Origin: a virus
IMG/VR virus record: IMGVR_UViG_3300035232_000745
Direction: 5' to 3' (one strand)
DNA length: 64,000 nucleotides
The position numbers and the translations under genes were made by a program. The notes beneath the pieces are model-generated. The model saw only the letters and a program-made list of their open reading frames with translations. It ran no database searches and was not told the origin of the DNA. Below, piece by piece: positions 7,447 to 24,588 of the stretch (its first letter is position 1; every line of letters begins with the position of its first letter).

Positions 7447-8316
7447 TCAACTTTTTTTGTTTTTCTTGTAGCTTCGTTTAGAAGATGACTTATCTGCTGT
7501 CGCTGATACGCCAAGTGATCCTATAGCTCCCATATTTCCCTTGAAGATGTAAGTACCTATATGGTTTATCTTCATCCAAGGACACATCCAAACTTTCATT
7601 CCAGCTTTACGAGATTGTCTGCAAAAGAAGTAATCTTCACTTAGATATCTTTTTGATCCTGCATCAATAACACAATCGAAGTAAGCCATAATCTCATTCG
7701 TGCCGTCAAAGTTTTCAGTGCGGGCATGATCTGGTTTGTATGAATATTCTGGGTAAGCTTTTTTGTATGTTTCAAAAGTTTCTCTTGGAATACACATAAA
7801 TCCTGTACCGCCTTCACCGATTTCTAAAGGTTCTGCCATATTAAAACTTTTAAGTTTATTGACTGGATTAAACACATAATCAGCAGTGTATTGGTCAAGT
7901 TCAAAGGGCGATTCATCTGCTTTACCTTGATCTGCCGCGGCTTTTACTTTTTCCCAAGCTATAGTTTTCTTTGGATATGGTCCAGTAACAATATTATATT
8001 TTTTAGGATCTGCTACTTGTATGGCAAGCATGCCAAGAACATCTCTTGGATCAAAAGCAATATCGCTATCTATGAATATTAGATGCGTACAATCAGATCT
8101 CATAAATTCATCTACCACGTAATTTCTTGCTCTTTGAATTAAGCTTTCATTAAACAAATAATAAAACTTAATCGTAATGCCATTAGCAGCGCATATCATC
8201 GCTAAGTCTGTGCATGATTTAGTATAAGAACCAGTGCAATTACCACCGTACATTGGGGTACCTACAAATATCTTGTATTTTCTAAGTTCTTCCACTGAAA
8301 TTTGTAAATTAGCCAT
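7447..8316 (-). CDS. GT-A fold glycosyltransferase-like protein
   Basis: TPMYGG, ESLIQRARN, FIDSD (DxD), GTGFMCI, LSEDYFFC. Confidence 0.7.
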   Translation of the reverse strand: MANLQISVEELRKYKIFVGTPMYGGNCTGSYTKSCTDLAMICAANGITIKFYYLFNESLIQRARNYVVDEFMRSDCTHLIFIDSDIAFDPRDVLGMLAIQVADPKKYNIVTGPYPKKTIAWEKVKAAADQGKADESPFELDQYTADYVFNPVNKLKSFNMAEPLEIGEGGTGFMCIPRETFETYKKAYPEYSYKPDHARTENFDGTNEIMAYFDCVIDAGSKRYLSEDYFFCRQSRKAGMKVWMCPWMKINHIGTYIFKGNMGAIGSLGVSATADKSSSKRSYKKNKKS

Positions 8317-8996: not shown

Positions 8997-10211
8997 TCAA
9001 CCGAAAAAGCTTTCGAGGTTATTTTCAGTTACATTCCATTGTTCTGTTGTTTCATCTATATTCGTTTGAAACAAAAAGTCTGTATCTGACCAAGGTCTAT
9101 TTCCTTCGAATACGTGTTTAATCTCAGTAGCCATATCCTTTGCTGTTTCGTAAGGAACGTTTTGGCAGATGTGATTGATAGAATTCTTTGGATCTAACAA
9201 CTCAAAGTCTTGAGGCAAACCCATAATAGTCATTGCTTCTCGAATAGTTATATATCTATCTTCGTATGGATGAGTTAACATTTTTGGGTAATGACCAACG
9301 AAAGCTCCAATATAATCTTTAGGAACCATTGTTCCTCTTCTCATAAGATTGCCTCCAGCCTGAAGCTTTTCATATTTACGTTCACATTTTGGAACTTCTC
9401 TATGATATCCGTTATCACCCATCCATTTAGCTATTCTTTTATAGTCATGACCTGCACGTTCAATCGCGCATTCAGCGTCATTTGCCCTTACGTTTTTTGT
9501 TACCATTATATCATGATATTCTCTATGAGTAATCCCACCATGAACTTCTTCTAAAAGGTAACGATAGTAAGGATCATCCTTAGAAGGAATTTTCTTATTG
9601 ATCACATCCATTTGAGTATTTGATGTTACACCGTTAATAATATCTTCTATTTTCTTGTGAGGTTTATTATAAAAGTGCAGAACAGGAGTTTTTTCACCGA
9701 ACATGTCTTTCTTCCAAAAGAAATAAAATGTACGCTTTCTGAACTGAGGAACACCATGTTTAATATTTTTAGTAAGATATAAAGACATCGAATAACCATT
9801 ATCTAATCCGATTTGTCTAAGCTTATTAAGCATAAACTCGCCTATCTTTCCAGATAGTGATGCAGCGTTCTCTCCCCAAAATACGTTTGGCTTTACGTTA
9901 GAAAGAATATACTCTGCGCTTAGCTCCATCCATTGGTTATTCTCGTTTGTTTCGCCGTGAGCATGATGCATAGTACTTAAACCTGCACACGGACAAACAC
10001 TTGATACAACATCTATTTTCTGGTTTAAGTCAGGAGATTGGCCCTTATCGAGAATATAATAAGGAACTTTATTTTCCCAATAATTCAAAAGATGTTGTTC
10101 ATTATCTTTAAATGCTTCATACGATAAAATATACTCTGGCTTTGAACCAAATACTTCTGTAGATGCAAGAGCTTCACCACCTATTAAGGGTATAATAGTG
10201 GCGTGCTTCAC
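8997..10211 (-). CDS. DNA cytosine-C5 methyltransferase homologue
   Basis: Motif IV PCAGLS, motif VI GENA, motif VIII GVPQFRKR, motif IX RYITIREA..IMGLPQDF; motif I (IPLIGG) and motif X (QNVP) are non-canonical. Confidence 0.75.
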   Translation of the reverse strand: MKHATIIPLIGGEALASTEVFGSKPEYILSYEAFKDNEQHLLNYWENKVPYYILDKGQSPDLNQKIDVVSSVCPCAGLSTMHHAHGETNENNQWMELSAEYILSNVKPNVFWGENAASLSGKIGEFMLNKLRQIGLDNGYSMSLYLTKNIKHGVPQFRKRTFYFFWKKDMFGEKTPVLHFYNKPHKKIEDIINGVTSNTQMDVINKKIPSKDDPYYRYLLEEVHGGITHREYHDIMVTKNVRANDAECAIERAGHDYKRIAKWMGDNGYHREVPKCERKYEKLQAGGNLMRRGTMVPKDYIGAFVGHYPKMLTHPYEDRYITIREAMTIMGLPQDFELLDPKNSINHICQNVPYETAKDMATEIKHVFEGNRPWSDTDFLFQTNIDETTEQWNVTENNLESFFG

Positions 10212-11314
10212 GAAAAGAAATCTTCTATAGTATTTTCTTCGATATCATTATATTCTTTGCCTTGCCAATGTGGATAAAACTCTCTAGAAAGATGGACAGA
10301 CTTTGGACTTTCCATTGCTTTAAAATCAAGTTCTCCTATGCCATTATAGAAATGTGGTGTAATCCATTCCTTAAATTGTACATCTGTTCCTTGAACCTTA
10401 CTCATAGCATATTCTTTAAAATATAAGCGTGCATCATTACGCTCAGCCCAAGAGCCGAAGAACTTTGTGCCTTTATACATGCCAGATTTTGGCAAGTTGC
10501 GGCGTTCATTTTCGATTGGTAATAACTCACAAATCACTTTACTTTCCATATCCAAAGAGTCTACAGCTTCAACATAACGGTCAACAAGAGTTCTTATCGC
10601 TTGTTTAGTATCGTCTTGTCTGCAAAGATGGTGTCTAATATCGATGTTACCAAAGTAACACTCAATATGTTTAACATTATCTCTATTTATGAAACTTTCA
10701 AGGCCCATTTCTAACGCACCATATAAAGTTTTAAATTGAACTGAATTGACATTGTAACCAGGTCTATACATTGAAATAGCATGACTATCTCCAATAACCA
10801 TTCGATCCCAAGTAGGATGTTGTGGTTTGATAGTGATAGCGTTCTTCTGCATTTCTCTTAGATTATCTAAATCTACTTCTCTAAACTCTGGAACTACAGA
10901 ATCAAGATTACCTTCTTTTGCTTTCATAGCGTTAAGCTTATATTCTAACATTGATGCATAATCTGGCATATCATATTCTAATGAATAGACTTGACCTTTA
11001 AATCTGGAAATATTACGAATGTTATATGCATGAGGAAAACCTTTTGTTCCTCCAAAGAAATTAATATCTGTTGCACCTTCTTTACGATCATTACCATGAT
11101 AGATATAAAGATTGTCGTATTGATTAAAATCTTCTTGTTTAGCTGCTTCTTTTGCGGCCGCACCCTGAACAGAAGATTTAGACATAATAATTTTCATTTC
11201 ACCAACATCAAGGTAATGACTAATCATATCCGCATAAATTACACCTTGCGCAGCTCTATGGTTTGGCAATTGAAAAGATATGGGAACAAAAGGCGATGCC
11301 ATTGCTGATTTCAT
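10208..11314 (-). CDS. hypothetical protein with C-terminal SGNH/GDSL-like domain
   Basis: VIGDSH block I, FGNID block III, SVHL block V. Confidence 0.55.
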   Translation of the reverse strand: MKSAMASPFVPISFQLPNHRAAQGVIYADMISHYLDVGEMKIIMSKSSVQGAAAKEAAKQEDFNQYDNLYIYHGNDRKEGATDINFFGGTKGFPHAYNIRNISRFKGQVYSLEYDMPDYASMLEYKLNAMKAKEGNLDSVVPEFREVDLDNLREMQKNAITIKPQHPTWDRMVIGDSHAISMYRPGYNVNSVQFKTLYGALEMGLESFINRDNVKHIECYFGNIDIRHHLCRQDDTKQAIRTLVDRYVEAVDSLDMESKVICELLPIENERRNLPKSGMYKGTKFFGSWAERNDARLYFKEYAMSKVQGTDVQFKEWITPHFYNGIGELDFKAMESPKSVHLSREFYPHWQGKEYNDIEENTIEDFFS

Positions 11315-11323
11315 AATATTCTC

Positions 11324-11959
11324 CTAAACAGTTTTTCTAAATTCTTCGTATTCATTTTCTAGAGTAACCCATTGCATTTTAGTAAGGCCCGACCAAGAAT
11401 GTCTTCTATCCCATACTATCCACATATAAGCAATCATACCACCTATCTGATCTTCTTTTTCGATAGGTTCTATATGATCTGAACTGAATTTAACTCTATC
11501 AGATAAAAAGATTATATCACTAGGAGGATTATTTGTAAACAATTTCTTTCTCTTCTTACCCTCTAAAAATGTAATACGTAAAAACATTGCAGTATAGTCA
11601 TATTCAGATATGAATTTCTCTGCTAGTTTTCTTGGTAAATCTTTGTGATAAGGAGGATTTGTCACAACACCATCTGCAAATTGCGGTTGCAGTTCCATTG
11701 CATCATAAGGTGTGTGGACTTCAGTCAAGCAATTATCATAAGAGTTTAAATCATAACTAGTTACGCTGTGACCCATTCTTTGAAGTTGCTTAGATATATT
11801 ACCACGGCCAGCACAAGGCTCAACAATATTTTTTGGCGGTTTACAATACTTTCCTAGAACGAATGTTGCCAAAGGAGGTGTTGGATAAAAATCATTCTGT
11901 CTTCTATTAGCATCGTCCTTTTTTACTCCGGTGTAAATATCAGTTAAATTAGTTGCCAT
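11324..11959 (-). CDS. amino-(N6A/N4C) DNA methyltransferase
   Basis: DFYPTP, EPCAGRG (SAM), VTNPPY catalytic motif. Confidence 0.85.
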   Translation of the reverse strand: MATNLTDIYTGVKKDDANRRQNDFYPTPPLATFVLGKYCKPPKNIVEPCAGRGNISKQLQRMGHSVTSYDLNSYDNCLTEVHTPYDAMELQPQFADGVVTNPPYHKDLPRKLAEKFISEYDYTAMFLRITFLEGKKRKKLFTNNPPSDIIFLSDRVKFSSDHIEPIEKEDQIGGMIAYMWIVWDRRHSWSGLTKMQWVTLENEYEEFRKTV

Positions 11960-11964
11960 CGATA

Positions 11965-12486
11965 CTACATTCTAATTTCAATAATGTCATTCCAAAACTC
12001 TTTCTTCTTTTTTCCGTGTATTATCAAATGCAATCTTTCTTCGTCAGATTTATTTTCGACCCAATGAGAATAGTGTACATTCAAAACAAATGCTGCACCT
12101 TTATGGTATGGTACTTCTTCTCCATTCAGAATGAACTTACTTCCATTAGGATATGAAATTGACATATTAAGAGTATCTAGCCAATTGTGTTCTGGAACAT
12201 CGCTGTGTTCAGCAATATATCCCTCAGGTTTTATAACTAAAAATCTAACGTCATCTAGTCTATCATATGGTAATGATTTGATGAACTCTACGGTCTTAGT
12301 ACATTTTAATCCTACCTCTGTAATATTGTCTTTAATGAATAAAGATGCTGCAAACCAGTCCTTATGACCATCTTGCGGTCTATTGATAACTAATTCTTCT
12401 TTGACTGATAGGTATTCTTGTTCTATATCGTAACAAGGAATATCGAAATTCATCTTTACCCATTGAGCATCGCTATTTCGGTGCAT
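11965..12486 (-). CDS. 2OG-Fe(II) oxygenase, aspartyl/asparaginyl beta-hydroxylase-like
   Basis: IAEHSD...H.VEN....R.H cupin motif. Confidence 0.7.
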   Translation of the reverse strand: MHRNSDAQWVKMNFDIPCYDIEQEYLSVKEELVINRPQDGHKDWFAASLFIKDNITEVGLKCTKTVEFIKSLPYDRLDDVRFLVIKPEGYIAEHSDVPEHNWLDTLNMSISYPNGSKFILNGEEVPYHKGAAFVLNVHYSHWVENKSDEERLHLIIHGKKKKEFWNDIIEIRM

Positions 12487-13031
12487 TAAACCAATTCTTC
12501 TTCTTTCAAGCCATAGATATCTACACCAGCTTCCATTAGCATCGGCCTAGATTGTTTATTCCACATATCAGTCCATGTTTCGGGGGTAGAGTCTGTAGGT
12601 AACATTATCCAGAGAGATTTTACACCAGCTTGAATAACACATTTAGTACAGTCTGAACAGACCGGTAATCCATAAACATAAAGAGTTGCTCCTTTTAATG
12701 ATACGCCATTATATAAAGCATTCATCAAAGCATTCATTTCTGCATGAACAATACGAGGATATTTCTCAGCTCTGTTATTTAATCTATCATCAGTATCAGC
12801 AATACCCTTTGGAAACCCGTTATATCCTGTCGCTAGAATATTTCTTTCATCGTTTACTGCTACAGCACCGATTTTACTAGAAGGGTCCTTACTCCACGTA
12901 GAAACCATTTTGGCCATATTCATGAAACGAATTGGCCATTTAGTTGTACTAGGATCTAAGAAACTATCTACGGGGTATTGTTTGTACATTCTTTTCATAT
13001 ATTGATCGTATGGTTCGTAATCATCAATCAT
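12486..13031 (-). CDS. cd: dCMP deaminase
   Basis: TGYNG, HAEMNA, PVCSDC Zn motif. Confidence 0.92.
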   Translation of the reverse strand: MIDDYEPYDQYMKRMYKQYPVDSFLDPSTTKWPIRFMNMAKMVSTWSKDPSSKIGAVAVNDERNILATGYNGFPKGIADTDDRLNNRAEKYPRIVHAEMNALMNALYNGVSLKGATLYVYGLPVCSDCTKCVIQAGVKSLWIMLPTDSTPETWTDMWNKQSRPMLMEAGVDIYGLKEEELV

Positions 13032-13242
13032 CGGATATCATCCTTGTTTCCATTTTTTCTTTTATATCGTAAACTTTTTCTTTCTCAATAATAGATATTA
13101 TGAGCTTTGTTAAGTCTAGGTCCTTTTGTAAGAACATCATTTTCTGTCGAATTTTTTTAATTTCACCTTCGTAAAATTCTATTTCTTTTTCTTTACGAAG
13201 TTTGGTTTCTAGTATGTCTGTAATTTTTATTAGTTTGCTCAC
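13024..13242 (-). CDS. hypothetical coiled-coil protein
   Basis: ORF with operon packing. Confidence 0.6.
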   Translation of the reverse strand: MSKLIKITDILETKLRKEKEIEFYEGEIKKIRQKMMFLQKDLDLTKLIISIIEKEKVYDIKEKMETRMISDD

Positions 13243-13244
13243 GT

Positions 13245-13922
13245 TTACTCCACTAAATTAAAGTGACGCTCGTACACGTGCAAGTTCATTACTTGCCAAG
13301 TAAGATCACCTTTTGTAAGGTTATGTCCTTCTTCATTTAGATTATCAATAGCTCTATCCATAAGGTGTTGAGCCCACGCATAATCATTCTTGTAACCAAA
13401 GACTACATCGTTTGAACGCATTTGTGATACCATATGCAACTTATTATCGCGAATATAGAACGTTTGCGCATTAGTACAAATGAAATCTGATTTACCATTC
13501 TCGTTGTATTCAACCCAAATAGATGGACGATTATAAACCATCTGAGCACGACGGCTATCTGGATTAGCAATCAACTCTTCAATTGCACTATAATATTGAT
13601 TATAAAACTTTGGAGAGTCTACAAGATGTCCGTAGTTTGAATTGATTTCACCGTTTTCATTAGCAGCATATTGCCAAGCAGCAGGCGGATCTTTATCTAA
13701 ACCATGAATATCCATAATATTAGTAGAACCGCTTTCATACCAAGCTAGCTCTGCATCAATATAAGATTTAACAGGTGTGCCAAAGATAGCTGGTTCATCA
13801 GCAATAAATGATGCACCTAACATTTCAATTGTTTTAGCACCGGTTTTGTCGATGGTAAAATTCTTATCGCTTAGTTCGTTAAAGAAGTATTCACGAATAT
13901 TACTTACATTATTTTGTTTCAT
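13245..13922 (-). CDS. gp42: dCMP hydroxymethylase (T4 gp42-like, thymidylate synthase fold)
   Basis: Close match, from memory, to T4 gp42: DKTG.KTIE..GASF.ADEP.IFG, GEINSNYG, NPDSRR, SDF.CTN, MRSNDVVFG..NDYAW, LHVY.RHF; the cytosine-specifying Asp (NDYAW) is kept. Confidence 0.9.
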   Translation of the reverse strand: MKQNNVSNIREYFFNELSDKNFTIDKTGAKTIEMLGASFIADEPAIFGTPVKSYIDAELAWYESGSTNIMDIHGLDKDPPAAWQYAANENGEINSNYGHLVDSPKFYNQYYSAIEELIANPDSRRAQMVYNRPSIWVEYNENGKSDFICTNAQTFYIRDNKLHMVSQMRSNDVVFGYKNDYAWAQHLMDRAIDNLNEEGHNLTKGDLTWQVMNLHVYERHFNLVE

Positions 13923-14217
13923 ATCTATCATCCATATCTTTGCCTTCATCATAAGCTACGCGAAGGATCATTAGCTGAGTTAATGCATGGTCTAAATGAA
14001 GAAGACCAGATTCTGGATCAATATCTTCTTTATCCCAATAGGCCATGAGGTGACGCTGAAGAGAAGAATAAGATCTGCCCCATTCAGTAGTATTAATATC
14101 ATCACGCCAATTGTTTTCAGAATATTTGGCTGCACCAAAAGCAAATACCTTAGCTGCAGCTTCAATAGCTACTGTAGGTACAAGATGAATTGGTGGTTTG
14201 TTATTGTCGTATTTCAT
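13909..14217 (-). CDS. dNTP diphosphohydrolase (DUF5664/dGTP_diPhyd-like)
   Basis: KYD..K, FGAAKY...NW, RHL..Y...EDIDPESGL.HL.HA. Confidence 0.8.
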   Translation of the reverse strand: MKYDNNKPPIHLVPTVAIEAAAKVFAFGAAKYSENNWRDDINTTEWGRSYSSLQRHLMAYWDKEDIDPESGLLHLDHALTQLMILRVAYDEGKDMDDRYETK

Positions 14218-14279
14218 TATATAAAGTCTCCGTGTGTATTACATTGATATATTCTATCATGTAATTCTTCAAATGTATA

Positions 14280-14369
14280 CTAAGTTTTTTCTTTTTGTGC
14301 TTTTAATGCTGCAAGAATATAACGTCTATGCTGTCTATATTCTAATACTATTTGTGCAAATGTTTTCAT
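14280..14369 (-). CDS. 29-aa microprotein
   Basis: MKTFAQIVLEYRQHRRYILAALKAQKEKT; ATGA overlap with upstream stop. Confidence 0.4.
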   Translation of the reverse strand: MKTFAQIVLEYRQHRRYILAALKAQKEKT

Positions 14370-15442
14370 GCTAGAAACTCCATTACTGAGTGTGAACTAC
14401 TTACTTTCTTTTCTAATGCAGCAGGCCTCCATATATCTGGATACATTGGCTTGTCGTCTTTATCCATCATATAATATCCAGAAGCATTTCTTAAGCCTCT
14501 GCCTGAGCGATCAAGATTATTTAAAAACCTTACGTAAATACATAAAGTATCTTCATGCGCAACAGCACTTGTACCAAGCTTTTCTGTAAGATCTGCAAGT
14601 GCTAAATCGTGATATTCTACTTGACTCATTCCTTTAGGTTTATGAAACATTTGTTCAATTGCTTGTCTTGCGTTATTACCACAATATAAACTAGAATTTG
14701 GATCAACGTATTCTGGGTGGTATGTAGCAATATCAGCAATCATTTGAGCATAAGGAAAGTTCCAACGACGAATACCTCTATCTATATTCTTCTGATTAAG
14801 TCTATCAGTTAATTCTTTCTGATCTAAAGGAGCACCATTATTCATAGCTAAATTTTCTTTTAGCCATTCAGTTAATTGTTTCATAAGATCTAAACCGAAG
14901 CTCGTAATGTGTTCTGGTAAATTCATTCCTTTTATCGGAGTTGGGTTTTGGTTACCAATAGTAGAAAACATTTTTCTATCAGCAGCTTTCCAAACCTTCA
15001 TTAGATCTGCCATTTCATCTGCAGTTTCTAATAAACCAAAATGAGATACAATAGAATGATGATATCCATGCCAATCCTTGCCGGCATAAAAACCAGAGCC
15101 AGTACTACGATGAACATAATAGGCGTAAACATATTCGAGTAAAGACCATTTGTCTGTTACATAATTTTTAACACGTTCTTGTACATCTACTGGTCTTTTC
15201 TTAAATACTATTTGGTTTGTTCCATAATTTATATCTTGATTAACATTATTAAAGCCTTCGTATGTACGAGACACACAATTATAAGCTGGAATATTTTGCA
15301 TTAATGGATCATTGATATTTTTATCGGCCTCGGGCCCAAGATAATCGAGATCACCGATTAAACAATTTTCTTCTAACCATTTAGATTTAGGCCAGAAGTA
15401 ATCTACGTAACAATCATAATTTGGTCTTGTTTCAAGTTGCAC
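14366..15442 (-). CDS. aGPT-Pplase1 / amino-acid:DNA transferase-like protein (HhH-glycosylase fold)
   Basis: NDPLM...N.VSR, F.YAQMIADI, LYCGNNA..AI and HEDTLC.Y.RF align with clade-1 motifs DPIL..N..R, F.A.Q...DL, GPGA..G and E..LCE..KY. Confidence 0.55.
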   Translation of the reverse strand: MQLETRPNYDCYVDYFWPKSKWLEENCLIGDLDYLGPEADKNINDPLMQNIPAYNCVSRTYEGFNNVNQDINYGTNQIVFKKRPVDVQERVKNYVTDKWSLLEYVYAYYVHRSTGSGFYAGKDWHGYHHSIVSHFGLLETADEMADLMKVWKAADRKMFSTIGNQNPTPIKGMNLPEHITSFGLDLMKQLTEWLKENLAMNNGAPLDQKELTDRLNQKNIDRGIRRWNFPYAQMIADIATYHPEYVDPNSSLYCGNNARQAIEQMFHKPKGMSQVEYHDLALADLTEKLGTSAVAHEDTLCIYVRFLNNLDRSGRGLRNASGYYMMDKDDKPMYPDIWRPAALEKKVSSSHSVMEFLA

Positions 15443-15453
15443 GTCTGACTCCT

Positions 15454-16065
15454 TTATAAGTTATGATTATATATACAACGGGTTTCTTTTCTGTGGTTAT
15501 AGAAGAATTTAAGTTTCTTAGATCCATCAACTTCTTCTGTCCAATTGTTATCGTAATCTGGATTACAAGGAGCAAGCGTTTCACGTATAGTATCAAAAGG
15601 TGCTACACATCTCCAACGTACATCATAAGTATTTTCTGCTACCTTTGAATAACAACCAAATATCACTACATCAACACATTCTGGATATAGCTTACGATTA
15701 CGTGCCAACTTATTACCCATATAATTAGACATAGTTAACCATTTCATTTCAAAACCTTCAGGCATTTTACCTGGATCTTGTGCATTCTTTACTTCACACC
15801 GCATACCATTCCACTCAACATCCCAATTATGTGAGTCTGGTATAGTATGATCAAATTCTGCTGTATTTTTTACTGCACCTTGACGTTCTAATGCGAACTC
15901 AAGTATAACACCTGCAGTCGTGTGTGCCATCACTGTTTCAAGAGTGCGGCCTCGTCTTTTTGCAGGGACATCATAAATGTCCTGTGCCATTGTTTTAATG
16001 TAAGAAAGCTCGTCATCGTTTAGTTCGATAACGAGCGCTTCAGGTAATTTTAAATTAGATATCAT
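15454..16065 (-). CDS. putative PD-(D/E)xK nuclease
   Basis: G...E...WDVEWNGMRCEVK motif. Confidence 0.45.
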   Translation of the reverse strand: MISNLKLPEALVIELNDDELSYIKTMAQDIYDVPAKRRGRTLETVMAHTTAGVILEFALERQGAVKNTAEFDHTIPDSHNWDVEWNGMRCEVKNAQDPGKMPEGFEMKWLTMSNYMGNKLARNRKLYPECVDVVIFGCYSKVAENTYDVRWRCVAPFDTIRETLAPCNPDYDNNWTEEVDGSKKLKFFYNHRKETRCIYNHNL

Positions 16066-16298
16066 GCTGTGTTATAATGCTTTTTCCAAGCGGAACCAAT
16101 CGTGCCGAGTCCTGTACCAGAAAGATAAACCTGCCACATAATGCGAGATACTTCAACTGAAGTCGGTGCATTTTGAATGTCCAACTTCAGTTGTTGTAAT
16201 ACTAAAGGTTTAGTCTTTTTACCTAGCATGGAAATTGCTACTTCGCGTGCTTGGTTGATTTCGAGCTTATCAAGTGTTTGGAGTTTTTCTAGATTCAT
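16062..16298 (-). CDS. hypothetical protein
   Basis: ORF downstream of a TTGACA-TAGAAT promoter. Confidence 0.6.
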   Translation of the reverse strand: MNLEKLQTLDKLEINQAREVAISMLGKKTKPLVLQQLKLDIQNAPTSVEVSRIMWQVYLSGTGLGTIGSAWKKHYNTA

Positions 16299-16359
16299 TA
16301 TACAATTCCTTTGTTTGATGATTCTATTCTAACACGTATAAGCTCAAATGTCAACCTTT

Positions 16360-16650
16360 TTATCGCGCGTACACGTACACATCTGCATGCGTAGCATAAG
16401 CTAATGGAAGAGAACAATCATAACCGCGACGATAACCTTTTACTTTTTCAGAGATATTTGCACGAGGTCCACGACCCTGAAGTTTAACTCGTTGAGGAGC
16501 ATCAGTGTCATATGCAAGATTACCCATCTTGACTACGAGCTTCAACCCATCAATAGCTGCCTGGTGTTCAGGTGCAACTTTACCGTTAATCATGTTAACA
16601 GTAAACTGATAAGCAGTTGATTGTCTTTCTGAATTGAATTGCGTTTTCAT
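16360..16650 (-). CDS. hypothetical early protein
   Basis: ORF with RBS AAGGA. Confidence 0.6.
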   Translation of the reverse strand: MKTQFNSERQSTAYQFTVNMINGKVAPEHQAAIDGLKLVVKMGNLAYDTDAPQRVKLQGRGPRANISEKVKGYRRGYDCSLPLAYATHADVYVYAR

Positions 16651-16686
16651 AATATTATTTCCTTTGTTAAAGTTGATGTAGTTGTT

Positions 16687-17049
16687 CTACACTGATTCTG
16701 TTAAAGTGTCAACAGTGTTTTGAAACACTTTTAAAGCTTCTTCAAATGAAGCATAAGAGTTACTTGATAAGCCTTCTAGGCTTTTTGGATATTGAACATA
16801 TTCGTTATCGTATTTTCCGATTTGATAATGTTGCTTTACACAGTCATCATCTTCGTATATATCGTTTACTAAAGAATAACCTTTATATTCCATTATAAAC
16901 TCGTCAAAATATGATTTGTGATAAACGTCTTTTATCTGATAAGTGCCTGTCGGTTCCTTATCATTTGCTGTTATCAGTGCTAAAGCATCTTCTATACGAG
17001 ATGCAATAGCTACTGACTCTCTGCCAATCGATCTAATAATTGTAAACAT
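16687..17049 (-). CDS. hypothetical protein
   Basis: ORF packing. Confidence 0.6.
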   Translation of the reverse strand: MFTIIRSIGRESVAIASRIEDALALITANDKEPTGTYQIKDVYHKSYFDEFIMEYKGYSLVNDIYEDDDCVKQHYQIGKYDNEYVQYPKSLEGLSSNSYASFEEALKVFQNTVDTLTESV

Positions 17050-17405
17050 TATGAGATTATTCCCTGTTCTTTAGCTGCAGCCATAACGATTGGTGTGAAA
17101 GCTTCTTCGATCAAATGCTCTACTTGATCCCAATTACCTTTGTTATAATATCCATAAGGTAAAGCTAAGTCACGCTTTTTAACGCCAAGAACTCTGCCGA
17201 TTTCTGAACCGCGATTACATAGAGCGTTATTGAATACATCATAGACAACATTCTGAGCTTTACGAAATTTCTCAAGAGCACGATTTTTACGAGGCGATTC
17301 AACTTGACCTTCGAATGGGACAAGTTCACCAAGCATATCTACGAGAGGCTTAGTTTCTGAAGTACATCCCCATGATGATTTATTTGGGTTCCACATGATT
17401 TTCAT
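17049..17405 (-). CDS. hypothetical early protein
   Basis: ORF downstream of a GTTTAC promoter (about 17452-17457). Confidence 0.6.
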   Translation of the reverse strand: MKIMWNPNKSSWGCTSETKPLVDMLGELVPFEGQVESPRKNRALEKFRKAQNVVYDVFNNALCNRGSEIGRVLGVKKRDLALPYGYYNKGNWDQVEHLIEEAFTPIVMAAAKEQGIIS

Positions 17406-17460
17406 TCCTTTTTTATATTATAGAATCAGTATAATATATATTTAAGGTGATGTAAACCCT

Positions 17461-17706
17461 TTAATCGTAACCTCTATGTGCAACGTAATATAGTTCTTCG
17501 TTTAGTACTTCTGCTTCGCGAGCTTTATATGCTTGTTCAAATCCAATCATACCATACTCACTTCTTTCTGTATTATTCCAAAGTCTTTTGAAGTAACTAT
17601 CATAAAGTTGTTCTACAGTCTTATCACTTTCGGATTTATTAATTAGCTGACCTTTAATTAACCAGTTAAGACGATTGGCTTCTTTACGTACAAACGGTGT
17701 GCACAT
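17461..17706 (-). CDS. hypothetical protein
   Basis: Strong RBS GGAGG; GATAAATA upstream. Confidence 0.6.
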   Translation of the reverse strand: MCTPFVRKEANRLNWLIKGQLINKSESDKTVEQLYDSYFKRLWNNTERSEYGMIGFEQAYKAREAEVLNEELYYVAHRGYD

Positions 17707-17785
17707 TGTGGGACCTCCTGTAAACTATACAAGAGTATTTATCTTGATAAAGCCAATTTGTCACACCCTGTATGGCGCTAACATG

Positions 17786-18196
17786 CTATACTGCCTTATT
17801 TAAATCTCCGTGATTACCATCGTGATTAGGTGCTTCCCAACCTTCAGGCTTAATAAGATCTGGTAATCCGAAAGGGTTCGGCCTACCTTCTTTAACACCG
17901 ACATCTTTCGATACATTAGCTTTGTATACACGATCCCATGCTTCGTTTGCATCTACGCCGAATACATCTAATGTACCAATAGCAAATACACACATATCAA
18001 TTAAGCCGTCTACGATTTCTTCTGGATCTTTTGCTTCAACTGCATCGAGTGTTTCATCAAGTTCTTCTTTACACATAGACAAACGAAACTTAAGGTACTT
18101 ATCCATCAAGTCTTTATTATCTTTGTTTTCATCAAACCATTTGCGTACACCAAACCGGTTATGCATCATATAGATGTCGTTTACCCAATCGCTCAT
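17786..18196 (-). CDS. MazG-like / PRA-PH nucleoside triphosphate pyrophosphohydrolase
   Basis: EELDE...EIVDGLID, V.KAN.SK, DLIKPEGW..P. Confidence 0.8.
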   Translation of the reverse strand: MSDWVNDIYMMHNRFGVRKWFDENKDNKDLMDKYLKFRLSMCKEELDETLDAVEAKDPEEIVDGLIDMCVFAIGTLDVFGVDANEAWDRVYKANVSKDVGVKEGRPNPFGLPDLIKPEGWEAPNHDGNHGDLNKAV

Positions 18197-18248
18197 AGTA
18201 TATTCCTTTCATAACTTATTAGTATTCTAACATGCGTAAGATCAAATG

Positions 18249-18419
18249 TCAATCATTTAGCTTATACAGATACTCTAACTCATCCTTAAGTTTTAGTTTA
18301 ACAATCTTAGCTTTTGTTATTGTTTCTTCTGGTGCTTTTTCGGCTTCTAATGTTTCAACAATAGAGTGCTGATGTTTGTGAGCCTTAGTAACTTCTTCTA
18401 TTCTGGTTTTGGTATTCAT
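18249..18419 (-). CDS. DUF465/YdcH-like small coiled-coil protein (56 aa)
   Basis: Not in track: MNTKTRIEEVTKAHKHQHSIVETLEAEKAPEETITKAKIVKLKLKDELEYLYKLND, RBS AGGAG. Confidence 0.6.
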   Translation of the reverse strand: MNTKTRIEEVTKAHKHQHSIVETLEAEKAPEETITKAKIVKLKLKDELEYLYKLND

Positions 18420-18427
18420 GATTACTC

Positions 18428-20968
18428 CTAAGCAAAAAAATCTTCTAACGTATTGACGTGTTCAGCATTCCAACCAACTGCTTCTAGAATAGCTTGCAAA
18501 GGGCTTAAGAATACTTTGTCGAATTGTTTTTCGTAATCGATATATTTGTTTAACCCAAGTTCTGGAGGTAAGACACCAGGGAAAGATATGATGTTCTCTC
18601 GTATTGGATTAGGCGTTTTTAGATATACGAACTTTATTTTGTCTCCACCTTTAATACTATCATACTTTTTATCTAAGCCGTTTTGTCTAAGATAGTGGTT
18701 ATAAAGTATCGAACCACGAACATGCATAGGACAGCCTTTTTTGTATAGAGATCCTGATCCTCTATCACGATATTTATCTATGTTGTCTGTGCCTGAATTC
18801 TTTGCAATGTCTTCAGCAGGAAGATTAAAGAACTTTGCTTTAAAGTCTGCGATAAATTCTTGAGTTTTTGTTTCACCTTCGTTCATAATAACCTTGAAAG
18901 ATTCTTTAAGTTTATCACGACATACTTCAGGCGTCGAAGACCTTACTGACTCTAAACCAGTAACTGATATCTTTGGCTCTTCATAGTGTACACCTTCTGA
19001 GTTAAGAGTATTCATAATGTAACGCTTCTTAGCGATGAAGACAGATTTATCAGTAATCTTTTCTCGTGCCATTTGCATAGCTTGACGATACGCACCCATC
19101 TTCTTTGCGAGTTCGATATAACCAGCTTCTAACACTGGTTCAATCTTCATCTGGCAAACTTTGTCAAGAAACTCTTCACCTTTCTTGCGGTCAACATCAA
19201 CAGTACCAAAGGCATTCTCTACGATTGGTGCCATATCAACATAGATAGAGTCTGTATCGATATAAACGATATAGTCTTTATCAGTCTTTAATATTTTATT
19301 TAGATAGTCATTAACTGCTTTCTGTCCATAACGAATAGACAATTGACCAGATGTAGTAATAGCTTCGGCCATGTCGTTAATATAGTATAGAAAGTAGATA
19401 TTTGCTGTAGCACCATACAAACTGTTCATAGCAATTTTGATAGCCATTTGAGAGTTATGTAATTGGTTTGCTTCACGCTTTAACAATTCTTTCTGTGCAG
19501 GATCAGTAGCATCTTCAAGATCTTGCTCTACTTTAAGCATTTTCTTCTTGATGATCTTACGATTACCGTAGTATTCATCAATGATGCTAGGAATTACACC
19601 TTGGAATTGATTAGTAAAACAAGCACCATTAGCACATACAGACATATCTTCTCTATTACTTTGGTACTGACCATTCAATACCATATCTTGTGTAACATGA
19701 TCTCGTTCTTCTGACAAATAAGTTTCGGGAGACATATTATATTGTAACATTAAGTGCGGATACAGAGAGTTAAGATCAAATGATACGATCCAAGGATGCA
19801 TACCTACACGTGGATCTTTAACATAACCACCTACAAGATCGCCAGCTCTTTGACCTGGGCCACCTTTGACTGGTGGAACACGGCCTTCGCTCATAAGTTT
19901 GCGATATAAAGTTGTTTCCCAAATACCAACTGTACCAAACGCATCGTTATAGTTTACACCACCGCCATATGCGACAGTCATAACGAGTTGGAGTAATGAG
20001 GTTTCATCTTCAAATCTTTGGATTAACCACGTGTCTTTAAGGTTATAGTCAAGATATAGTTGTGGATTTTGTTCGTATAACGCGTTAAGGTTACCATACT
20101 CAGAGTAATCTAATTTCTTTTCACCTAATACAACGTTAGCAATATGATCAAGCTTCCAAGACTCTTGCGGACCATACTTATAGCCAAACTTCTTAAAGCA
20201 ATCCATATAGTCAATGATAGAGACACCAGAAATCTCATATGTGTTTTGCATTTTACCATAGAACTCTCGGCCTGTTGGTCTAATGCTACGCCAAGGTGAT
20301 AGATCTTTTACCCATTCTTCACCGAATAAGTTCTTCATGCGAGTTATAAGATATTGTATATCAAAGTATTCTACGTTCCAACCAGTAACGATATCAGGAT
20401 AATTATTGATCCACAACTCTTTGAAGCGCTTAAGTAAAGCATGCTCAGTATCAAATTCCATGAAATGAATGTTATCTGGATCAAGATCTAGTAAAGTCTT
20501 ACTTTTGTCATAACCCTTGCGGCCAAGCAAGTGGTAATCAGAAGACTTCGAAGATTTGTAAGCTATAGATGTAATTTCTTTGTCAGCAGTATTAACATCT
20601 GGGTATCCTGTAGCGATATCAACCTCAATATCAAATGATACGATATTGATCAATGAAGGATCATATTTGATTTCACCTGGGTAATTTTCTTGAATAAACT
20701 GAGCTACATAGTTACTAGACCCTGCTATTTCAAAACCATGCACATCTTTATATTGTTCAATGTAATCCTTTGCATCACGCATCGAGTCCATCTTAGTGGG
20801 CTCTAGATATTTTCCAGAACTAAGAGACTTGTATTTAGTATCGTGCCTTACTCCTGTAAATAGTGTTGGTTGATACTTAACTCTGCGAGAAAAGCTTTTG
20901 CCATTCTCATAACCTCGCCAAAGGATATTGTTGCCGAAACGTTCGACTGATGTGTAAAATTTAGACAT
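18428..20968 (-). CDS. gp43: DNA polymerase gp43 (family B)
   Basis: FDIE exo [19 protein letters not shown]...NSLYG, YIDTDS. Confidence 0.98.
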
Positions 20969-22970: not shown

Positions 22971-24031
22971 TAGATATTTTGTGCTTCCGAATATAGTTCA
23001 TCAATCAATTCTTTGATCCTTACTTTGTCTGCTTTAGTGTCTATCGATCTAACATAATCATGTAGAATATCTTTGGTATCTTTAGTTTCATCCAAGATAT
23101 CATCTACACCACTATCTTCTAAATCTAACGAATCGTCAACAGATTTTACGTCTGCAGCACCTCCGTCTGTTAACTTATTAATGAACAAATCATATATGTA
23201 AGGATTAGTTCTATTTTTAACTATGACTTTGATATAAGCATCTTTGATGTTAGTCATATCAAGATTAGCTATATCTTCGATAGTCATGTCCTTATCGTCA
23301 TAATCAATCTTATGATATATCGCAAATGGATTTAGAACCCAATTAAGATTGCGAGTTTCAGTATCAAGAACTCTAAACCCACGTTTACCTTGATAATCTG
23401 ACCATGTCATTTCATAAGGTGCACCTAAATAATTAATATTACCATATTCAGATGGGTGATGGAAGTGTCCAGAATAAACTTGTTCATAAGAAGTAAACAA
23501 CTCTTTAGATAAGCCGTGATCACATATAGCACCTTTCAACATTTCAAATCCAACGATATCAAAGTGGCCCATACATATATGAGCGTTAGAATTTCGTATA
23601 GCTTCCAAAGATGTTTCTGAGTTTGTTTTCGTGATCCACGGTACCATAATAACATTAGTTGATCCAAATGTCAATTCTACTGGTTCATCTCTGTATATAT
23701 TAAAGTTTTCATACTCTTGAAGTAGTAAATCCATTGAGTTTACTTCATTTGTGTTCGTATAATAAACTGAGTGATTACCTACTACAGCATGATATTCTAT
23801 ACCCCGTGATTGAAGCTGATCAAAGAAAAACTTCTTTGCTCTTCCGAGTGTTACGTAGTTAATATACTTTCTTCTATCAAATGTATCTCCTAGATCTAAC
23901 ACCGTATCGATTTCGTGTTTATCTAAATACGGAAAGAATATCTCATTAAAGAAACGTTCTTGATGATCTAAGAATATCTTTGAATCACCTCTTACTCCGA
24001 GGTGCATATCTGTGATGATAGCTATCTTCAT
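22970..24031 (-). CDS. gp47: recombination endonuclease gp47 (Mre11-like)
   Basis: TDMHLG, LGDTFD, GNH, SGHFH. Confidence 0.97.
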   Translation of the reverse strand: MKIAIITDMHLGVRGDSKIFLDHQERFFNEIFFPYLDKHEIDTVLDLGDTFDRRKYINYVTLGRAKKFFFDQLQSRGIEYHAVVGNHSVYYTNTNEVNSMDLLLQEYENFNIYRDEPVELTFGSTNVIMVPWITKTNSETSLEAIRNSNAHICMGHFDIVGFEMLKGAICDHGLSKELFTSYEQVYSGHFHHPSEYGNINYLGAPYEMTWSDYQGKRGFRVLDTETRNLNWVLNPFAIYHKIDYDDKDMTIEDIANLDMTNIKDAYIKVIVKNRTNPYIYDLFINKLTDGGAADVKSVDDSLDLEDSGVDDILDETKDTKDILHDYVRSIDTKADKVRIKELIDELYSEAQNI

Positions 24032-24588
24032 TTTTCATCGATCTCGTCAATTACTTCTTGAATATCAACTTCTTCATCTGCATTCTTTTTCTTTGCTTTA
24101 TCTCTTGCAATCTTATCTTCATAATCTTGAACAAAGGAATTCATATAATCTGCAGAAGTTGTTAAGTTAAGAGTAACGTCTTCTCCACCAGCATAAGTTC
24201 CACCAGTTGCAATCATCTGTTGCGAAGATTTAAAACGAATATACATTTGTTTCTTTTCTTTTTGAATGCGACGTAAGAAAGCAAACCAAATAATTTGTGT
24301 AAAATACGCAAAAGGATTTTGAGATTTTTCAGGATTAAAGTTACCCATATATAATAGGCAATTTTCAATTCCGTCTGATATCATATCATCTTTATATGAG
24401 TAACCACTGAAATTTGGTTTTGTTGCAAGTCTTGTTGCAATCTGATAGATGCACTTACCAATGTAGTCAGGACATCTTGGTTTCTCGTCACCAGCATCTT
24501 CTGCTTCAACGCATAATTTTTTGTATTGTATTAATGCTTCAAGAAAGTCTGCATTATTAACATAGTTCTTCTTCGCTCTTTTAGCCAT
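24028..24588 (-). CDS. gp55: late transcription sigma factor gp55
   Basis: YVNN..F, PNFSGYSY.DDMISDGIENC, NPFAYFTQI...AFLRRI.KEK. Confidence 0.95.
   Translation of the reverse strand: MAKRAKKNYVNNADFLEALIQYKKLCVEAEDAGDEKPRCPDYIGKCIYQIATRLATKPNFSGYSYKDDMISDGIENCLLYMGNFNPEKSQNPFAYFTQIIWFAFLRRIQKEKKQMYIRFKSSQQMIATGGTYAGGEDVTLNLTTSADYMNSFVQDYEDKIARDKAKKKNADEEVDIQEVIDEIDEK

Follow-up and report, generated by a model that had tools for sequence, protein, structure and literature searches.

In eukaryotes, DNMT1 binds PCNA through a PCNA-interacting peptide (PIP) box, and methylation is thereby coupled to replication. In phage T4, residues 892-SLDFLF-897 of the DNA polymerase gp43 form a clamp-interacting peptide that occupies a hydrophobic pocket of the sliding clamp gp45, located between the two domains of each monomer (PMC12746103), and the C-terminal clamp motifs of the T4 transcription factors gp33 and gp55 are interchangeable (PMC2988020). 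A phage DNA-modifying enzyme has also been proposed to ride the clamp and modify DNA concomitantly with replication, as an earlier report, cited as reference 20 in bioRxiv 10.64898/2025.12.06.692756, described binding of the T4 alpha-glucosyltransferase (alpha-GT) to gp45. This work concerns a stretch of 64,000 nucleotides (IMG/VR record IMGVR_UViG_3300035232_000745; hereafter the window) from an uncultured T4-like marine myophage of ~35% G+C, in which gp43 and three enzymes predicted to modify DNA (an SGNH-like protein, a C5-cytosine-DNA-methyltransferase-like or Dcm-like protein, and an aGPT-like protein) end in peptides of this class. The database phages nearest to the window by gp43 are Synechococcus myophages, with an identity of just 44%.

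The closest described modification system is thymidine hypermodification by 5-HMUDK together with aGPT-Pplase or AADT enzymes (PMC8989533). The window would share with it the post-replicative modification of hydroxymethyl-pyrimidines on polymer DNA. A transferase with an HhH-glycosylase-like fold, which aGPT-Pplases are predicted to have (Lee et al., NAR, PMC8989533), may be a further likeness. Upstream genes for a thymidylate-synthase (TS)-like enzyme and a dCMP deaminase are common to both, and an HMUDK helical-domain family is found in related operons. Unlike 5-HMUDK pathways, the window has no P-loop kinase that could be seen, and the published pathways do not include the conserved pair of SGNH-like and Dcm-like genes. 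PMC8989533 makes no mention of the replisome, the replication fork, a "sliding clamp" or "clamp-binding," and full-text literature searches returned no paper on clamp-binding peptides of phage DNA-modification enzymes, including aGPT-Pplase and 5-HMUDK. The best reading of the tails described here, and one we hold to be quite likely, is clamp-tethered, replication-coupled DNA modification, in which gp45 binding, timing, and chemistry are all predicted.

Polymerase-type tails on putative DNA-modification enzymes

In the window translations, gp43 ends in NTLEDFFA (encoded at 18431-18454), the 368-amino-acid (aa) SGNH-like protein in NTIEDFFS (10211-10234), the Dcm-like protein in NNLESFFG (9000-9023), and the 358-aa aGPT-like protein in HSVMEFLA (14369-14392). 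No further protein among about 91-108 window genes has a comparable C terminus. A preliminary description of this DNA, made from the sequence alone, had listed these ends as TLEDFFA, TIEDFFS, NLESFFG, and SVMEFLA, and had started from the premise that T4-type gp43 binds gp45 through its C-terminal peptide; all four ends are correct, and the premise agrees with the published work (PMC12746103, PMC2988020). Given the amino-acid composition of the window, the pattern [LI]E[DS]FF[AGS] at a C terminus is expected 4.5e-5 times, so that the probability of at least three occurrences is 1.5e-14. A looser pattern that also covers the aGPT-like tail gives a probability of 2.5e-7 for at least four.

Such a resemblance could in principle come from chance, from DNA repeats, or from overlapping translation signals at gene ends, and the stop of the SGNH-like gene does overlap the start of the Dcm-like gene (10208-10211), which places some constraint on the sequence there. 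The tail codons, however, differ synonymously (TTA/ATA/CTC; TTT TTT / TTC TTT / TTT TTC), which rules out a DNA-level repeat or a shared 3' cassette as the source of the tails and indicates that the likeness is maintained at the peptide level by selection. The peptide persists in hundreds of diverged homologues even though the genes downstream of them differ. Together with the P value of ~1e-14 and the restriction of the tail to few families, these results refute chance or a DNA-level by-product, to which we give practically no weight.

The docking proposal had hinged in part on whether the tails recur in homologues, and they do. With the pattern [ST]-L-[ED]-x-F-[FLIM] scored at the extreme C terminus, the tail was kept in 114/120 of the best database homologues of the SGNH-like protein (44-100% identity) and in 114/120 homologues of the Dcm-like protein (55-100% identity), while [ST]-[LI]-x-[ED]-F-[LMF]-x recurs in 16 of 21 aGPT-like homologues. 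In logos anchored on the motif, T/S (−1) precedes L (0) and E (+1); position +2 varies, F and F/L/I/M fill +3 and +4, respectively, and 0-2 residues come after the motif. Information content at the L and F positions reaches 3.5-3.9 bits, versus ~1 bit in the eight preceding residues. In both predicted models (AlphaFold2 [AF2]) the tail regions are disordered, with predicted local distance difference test (pLDDT) values below 50 at residues 356-368 of the SGNH-like protein and 338-358 of the aGPT-like protein, as expected for linear motifs. The Pfam domain of the Dcm-like protein stops at residue 365 of 404.

The alignment of window gp43 with T4 gp43 runs from one end to the other and pairs NTLEDFFA with the T4 sequence ASLDFLFG position for position; T4 gp33 ends in NTLDFLL. 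A gp45 profile built from 19 homologues matches RB69 gp45 (1b77/1b8h) and T4 gp45 (1czd) over the full length (E ~1e-44). One pattern, [ST]-L-x-x-hydrophobic-F, covers T4, RB69, Aeromonas phage 44RR2.8t, and the window phage. Compared with the gp43, gp33, and gp55 peptides of T4 and RB69 (RB69 clamp-peptide structure 1B8H), the window tails are alike in lying at the extreme C terminus after a variable linker, in sharing this pattern and an acidic/hydrophobic character, and in occurring alongside a full-length gp45 homologue. From these sequence comparisons, the C-terminal motif [ST]-[LIV]-[ED/x]-x-F-[FLIM]-x is best explained as the form that the T4 clamp-interacting peptide takes in this clade. 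A difference lies in the clients, which are the polymerase and transcription factors in T4 and RB69 and, by predicted binding, DNA-modification enzymes here.

The clade consensus LE[DSA]F[FLIM] is nearer the core of the PIP box (Q-x-x-[LIM]-x-x-[FY]-[FY]) than is T4 LDFLF. The L-x-x-F-F core is common to both; LEDFF, IEDFF, and LESFF fit it, and VMEFL fits in part. The PIP-box Q three residues before the anchor is replaced by V in gp43, E in the SGNH-like and Dcm-like proteins, and H in the aGPT-like protein, and some Dcm-like homologues have the full PIP-like ends QATLEAFI or QNTLEAFL. The PIP box, which is both eukaryotic and archaeal, binds PCNA, whereas the clamp here is gp45. DNMT1-PCNA follows the same logic, in that a DNA methyltransferase is tethered to the clamp and can thereby modify new DNA; DNMT1, however, is a single maintenance methylase, whereas several enzymes of one hypermodification pathway bear the peptide here. 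The likeness to the eukaryotic pair would be an apparent convergence.

Distribution of the tail in related phages

To place the tail among other gene products, the window was surveyed together with 80 IMG/VR loci that surround homologues of its 368-aa protein (81 loci, 1,354 open reading frames [ORFs], 316 families). The strict tail was found at 179 true C termini and at one control pseudo-terminus, and was confined to 4 of the 316 families: the SGNH-like family (69/80, or 79/80 with the looser pattern), the Dcm-like family (58/65), gp43 (10/10), and a family of 360- to 390-aa proteins not present in the window, HMUDK_hel (41/47; Pfam PF18723, 5-hmdU DNA kinase helical domain). None of the gp45, gp44, gp62, MazG, exonuclease, gp46, and gp47 families carried it, nor did any of the 42 TS-like or 39 dCMP deaminase family members. 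This distribution amounts to a split between enzymes acting on polymer DNA and enzymes acting on nucleotides, and it supports the earlier suggestion that the tailed enzymes act on DNA. Gene order in these loci is conserved, running TS-like, deaminase, a variable module, SGNH-like, Dcm-like, and then gp45, gp44, and gp62. On a 71-kb related contig (C105; 112 ORFs), clean tails occur on the gp43, SGNH-like, Dcm-like, and HMUDK_hel proteins only. In several loci the last residues of gp43 and the SGNH-like protein pair as V/V, G/G, or A/S, with too few independent loci for any claim.

Further relatives were taken from the nearest genome bin (G001; 3.6 Mb, 270 contigs), used solely for this purpose. 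With no fewer than eight distinct gp43 genes of T4-like type and eight genes for gp55, G001 pools many T4-like phages and does not represent a single organism. In 8/8 of its gp43 proteins the end is again [ST]L[ED][DEA]FF. The gp55 of more distant G001 phages ends in KLELFMV, DLGDFIK, GLEVFIDDEEESEDK, or GLELVMEYA (GLEVFIDDEEE is also given), which are of the same motif class and stand at the place of the T4 gp55 clamp epitope. A 474-aa alpha-GT homologue on G001 contig C76 (L133:10914-12338, −; PF11440, 27.8 bits versus a cut-off of 25) ends in GATLEGFF, and [ST][LI]E[GE]FF is kept in 29/29 of its IMG/VR homologues (L135-L167). T4 alpha-GT, which ends in KEQFDIITK, lacks a gp43-type tail. By its sequence, this tailed homologue indicates that the motif moves between protein families.

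The tail is also found in a cultured phage. Aeromonas phage 44RR2.8t ORF233c (L116:5001-7388, +; 795 aa), whose record labels the product hypothetical, fuses SGNH-like and HMUDK_hel-like modules (phrog_17781) and ends in CSLDGLFAI. In the same genome gp43B ends in NNLFDMFDI, gp33 in NTLDFLM, and gp55 in NLDNFYEDEPET (NLDNFY...). The only pattern matches among 258 44RR2.8t ORFs were gp43B, ORF233c, and one 88-aa ORF (ITVFFRID) of no evident relevance. ORF233c adjoins a sodium:solute symporter-like gene.

Distant Dcm-like proteins (31-45% identity) often lack the LExFF tail, and 34 of 135 end instead in [LIVM][FY]-COOH (KSKVLF, KAKELF, IQLSLF), versus 1.7% in a background set. In 80 loci sampled from this second clade (L171-L250, e.g., L185 10001-13529), a T4-type polymerase is split, and its C-terminal half ends in LIYTTSLF in 51/60 cases. 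Dcm-like proteins of these loci end in KVKSII, KVNSTF, or SKKLF, and two unannotated families of 164 and 336 aa end in KRKIRKLF (45/45) and KSVF (32/32), respectively. Among the other large families (at least 20 members), 14 of 16 are tail-free, and two, of 56 and 24 members, partly match loose patterns. A suggestive reading of these sequences is that enzyme tails change together with the polymerase tail, as a shared partner predicts. In a search for the clamp of the second clade, a neighboring 249-aa protein was not detectably gp45-like (hhalign probability 1.5%) and had no PHROG match. Exact look-up of Dcm-like proteins ending in xLF returned merely contigs of 2-5 kb, of uninformative context. 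The 164- and 336-aa families are flanked by sugar-nucleotide genes (DegT aminotransferase, NAD epimerase, GT1).

These distributions also bear on whether the tail could be a general C-terminal signal, such as a degron or a tag for stability or timing, for proteins that are removed or limited together. Short hydrophobic C termini are able to act as protease tags. The tail, however, is limited to gp43, to the late sigma factor gp55 of relatives, and to enzymes that act on DNA, and nucleotide-pool enzymes co-expressed from the operon lack it. In T4, peptides of this class are proven to bind the clamp, and in the second clade the tail seems to change with the polymerase tail. A general signal of this kind is therefore very improbable.

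The tailed enzymes and their neighborhood

The C-terminal half of the 368-aa protein (AF2 pLDDT 83.5) adopts an SGNH hydrolase fold, with Foldseek matches to PAF-AH, GDSL lipases, and PatB at a probability of 1.0 (E 8e-6 to 1e-3). SGNH blocks I and III are present as GDSH and GN(I)D, and 24 homologues share G175-D176-S177-H178 and G222-N223 without variation. The Dcm-like protein scores 72.8 bits against PF00145 (cut-off, 22) and contains CPCAGLS, WGENA, and QFRKRTF, corresponding to the catalytic PC, ENV-type, and QxRxR motifs. Sequence thus places it in the C5-methyltransferase family, and methyl transfer is only putative because its S-adenosylmethionine motif I is unusual (IPLIGG).

The 358-aa protein is predicted to be all-helical (AF2 pLDDT 89). 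In a VIA search its top 21 rows were all of the HhH-GPD type, and the top tie (Z 8.2-8.5, where values below about 13 are not decisive for helical proteins) comprised AGOG/Ogg glycosylases and 8z2m, the 5-PmdU glycinyltransferase gp46 of phage PaMx11 (Z 8.2, root mean square deviation 4.5 Å, 213 residues aligned). The best Foldseek match had an E value of 0.04. Neither this protein nor 23 family members matched Pfam at E 0.01, and sequence membership in aGPT-Pplase was rejected after Pfam, PHROG, and PDB-sequence comparisons, including a profile search against PDB sequences, gave no match. The label "aGPT-like" given in the preliminary description thus finds support at the level of fold, through the tie with 8z2m, and none at the level of sequence.

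Features of the region are collected in Table 1. The NPPY methyltransferase and the PF05118 protein are near-singletons among the 81 loci, with family sizes of 2 and 1; at their position relatives have the HMUDK_hel module, or an aGPT-like module with two other families. The 102-aa protein matches solely the N-terminal domain of dATP/dGTP diphosphohydrolase, and together with the nearby, separate MazG-like protein it is a candidate cleaner of the deoxynucleoside triphosphate pool for a modified-base genome. The glycosyltransferase-like protein is tailed in none of 44 cases and always has a lysine-rich end (KRSYKKNKKS, SKLGEKKK, VGKLNKKK), which may be a nonspecific DNA-binding tail.

Table 1. 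Features around the tailed genes in the window
Feature	Position	Strand	Remark
gp62, gp44		−	Start of the region's listed gene order, before gp45
gp45 sliding clamp, 220 aa	6727-7389	−	Pfam gp45-slide_C, E 2.7e-16
Glycosyltransferase-like protein	7447-8316	−	Listed after gp45
DexA-like exonuclease		−	Between the glycosyltransferase-like and Dcm-like genes
Dcm-like enzyme, 404 aa	8997-10211	−	PF00145, E 4.5e-20
SGNH-like enzyme, 368 aa	10208-11314	−	C-terminal SGNH-hydrolase-fold domain
NPPY DNA methyltransferase	11324-11959	−	phrog_799
Cupin / Asp-Arg-hydroxylase-like protein	within 11324-12486	−	PF05118
dCMP deaminase	12486-13031	−	PF00383, E 5e-19; acts on nucleotides; untailed
Thymidylate-synthase-family enzyme (candidate dNMP hydroxymethylase)	13245-13952	−	PF00303, E 7e-16; untailed
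dGTP-diphosphohydrolase N-domain protein, 102 aa	13909-14217	−	PF18909, E 2e-28
aGPT-like protein, 358 aa	14366-15442	−	HhH-GPD-like fold; no Pfam match
MazG-like protein	17786-18196	−	Preceded in the list by several small ORFs
gp43 family-B DNA polymerase, 846 aa	18428-20968	−	phmmer to T4/RB69 gp43 structures, E 1e-118
gp46, gp47		−	Listed beyond gp43
gp55	24028-24588	−	Listed beyond gp43

Proposed docking on gp45 and its consequences

The tails exist, match the position of the T4 peptide, are conserved, and are restricted to gp43, the gp55 of relatives, and DNA-level enzymes. In the proposed mechanism, gp43 would hold the gp45 trimer through its C-terminal heptapeptide, and the SGNH-fold, C5-methyltransferase-like, and HhH-glycosylase-fold enzymes, each with this peptide at the end of a flexible linker, would therefore dock in the same hydrophobic pocket. 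Since the trimer provides three pockets and clamps remain on DNA behind the fork, modification enzymes could gather there, and docking would concentrate the post-replicative enzymes on newly made phage DNA in the manner of a "tool belt." Untailed pool enzymes (TS-like, dCMP deaminase, and MazG-type) would supply the precursor base, which gp43 would incorporate before modification was finished on the polymer.

The preliminary description had suggested that tails be co-folded with gp45. Docking was modeled with a gp45 trimer from alignment A2 and, as its partner, the SGNH-like segment 329-368 from alignment A1. The score was 0.53, which counts as weak support, versus a best score of 0.00 in three controls with an unrelated partner or a replaced clamp. 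Agreement of contacts between runs was at least 39%, and the partner pLDDT was 40-46. Of 80 solved complexes, 58 passed the mark used, as did 2 of 110 mismatched pairs; only 7 of the 80 solved complexes, and both of the passing mismatches, did so at scores of 0.60 or below. The earlier inference that the enzymes dock on the clamp thus gains from tail homology, conservation, and family restriction and just weakly from the co-fold, and physical binding stays at the level of prediction.

Several observations weigh against clamp docking. The co-fold pass may reflect memory of RB69 1B8H or of the T4 holoenzyme, since the modeled complex resembles solved ones. A 2025 preprint (bioRxiv 10.64898/2025.12.06.692756), using C-terminally His-tagged enzymes, failed to reproduce the interaction of T4 alpha-GT with gp45 in vitro or in vivo; T4 alpha-GT lacks the tail, whereas here the peptide is conserved, of polymerase type, and present even on the alpha-GT homologue of a related marine phage (ATLEGFF). 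Two DNA-level proteins of the window, the NPPY methyltransferase and the glycosyltransferase-like protein, have no tail. Among more distant aGPT-like members (23 in the loci), most have no tail at all, and the aGPT-like tail of the window has V where the other three have L or I; because the ends of close homologues (SIMDFLS, TLAEFLI, SLEEFFV) share its register, it belongs to the same motif. Window gp55 ends in EVIDEIDEK and has no hydrophobic clamp epitope, and gp33 homologues in G001 (L022-L027) end in GNKLPI, GARLPI, NTLPVDL, or LTKLC, unlike the polymerase tail. With ends in KLPI, TLPVDL, or LTKLC, G001 gp33 was of no help as an independent positive control.

The absence of the motif from window gp55 and from the gp33 of relatives means that it is not the sole route to gp45 in this clade, and clamp coupling of late transcription may differ there. 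As a separate observation, an aGPT-like homologue on contig C93 (L020 1393-2430) ends in NNTLPI, like the gp33 ends, and such an LPI end may be a second docking motif. That these expected gp45 binders, window gp55 and the gp33 homologues of the closest clade, are without the motif, and that co-folding with gp45 gives weak support alone, would also fit a tail that docks on another hub, such as a different replisome protein or a chaperone, so that the enzymes co-localize without the clamp. We regard this alternative as unlikely: by position, the gp43 tail is the homologue of the T4 peptide inside the gp45 pocket, related phages carry the motif on gp55 where T4 gp55 has its clamp epitope, and the co-fold controls scored nothing.

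Clamp tethering would address the question of how post-replicative hypermodification keeps pace with phage DNA synthesis yet avoids host DNA. A conserved peptide shared by unrelated modification enzymes offers a concrete and testable mechanism, docking on the gp45 left on new DNA, at a time when the sole published clamp-tethering proposal, that of T4 alpha-GT with gp45, is disputed; this proposal and DNMT1-PCNA are precedents of the concept. Extending the reading, marine T4-like phages and Aeromonas phages of the 44RR2.8t group may well run whole hypermodification pathways as a clamp-bound tool belt, with at least five unrelated families (C5-methyltransferase-like, SGNH fold, HMUDK-helical, HhH-glycosylase fold, and alpha-GT-like) having independently gained a peptide that co-evolves with the clamp and polymerase of the clade; we find this somewhat more probable than otherwise. 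The tail marks the SGNH-fold protein as a DNA-acting enzyme, which is unexpected for this fold, and its presence in ORF233c of a cultured phage already makes bench tests of the idea feasible. If the extended reading is true, a polymerase-type C-terminal tail would be a general signature for finding as yet unknown enzymes whose substrate is replicating phage DNA.

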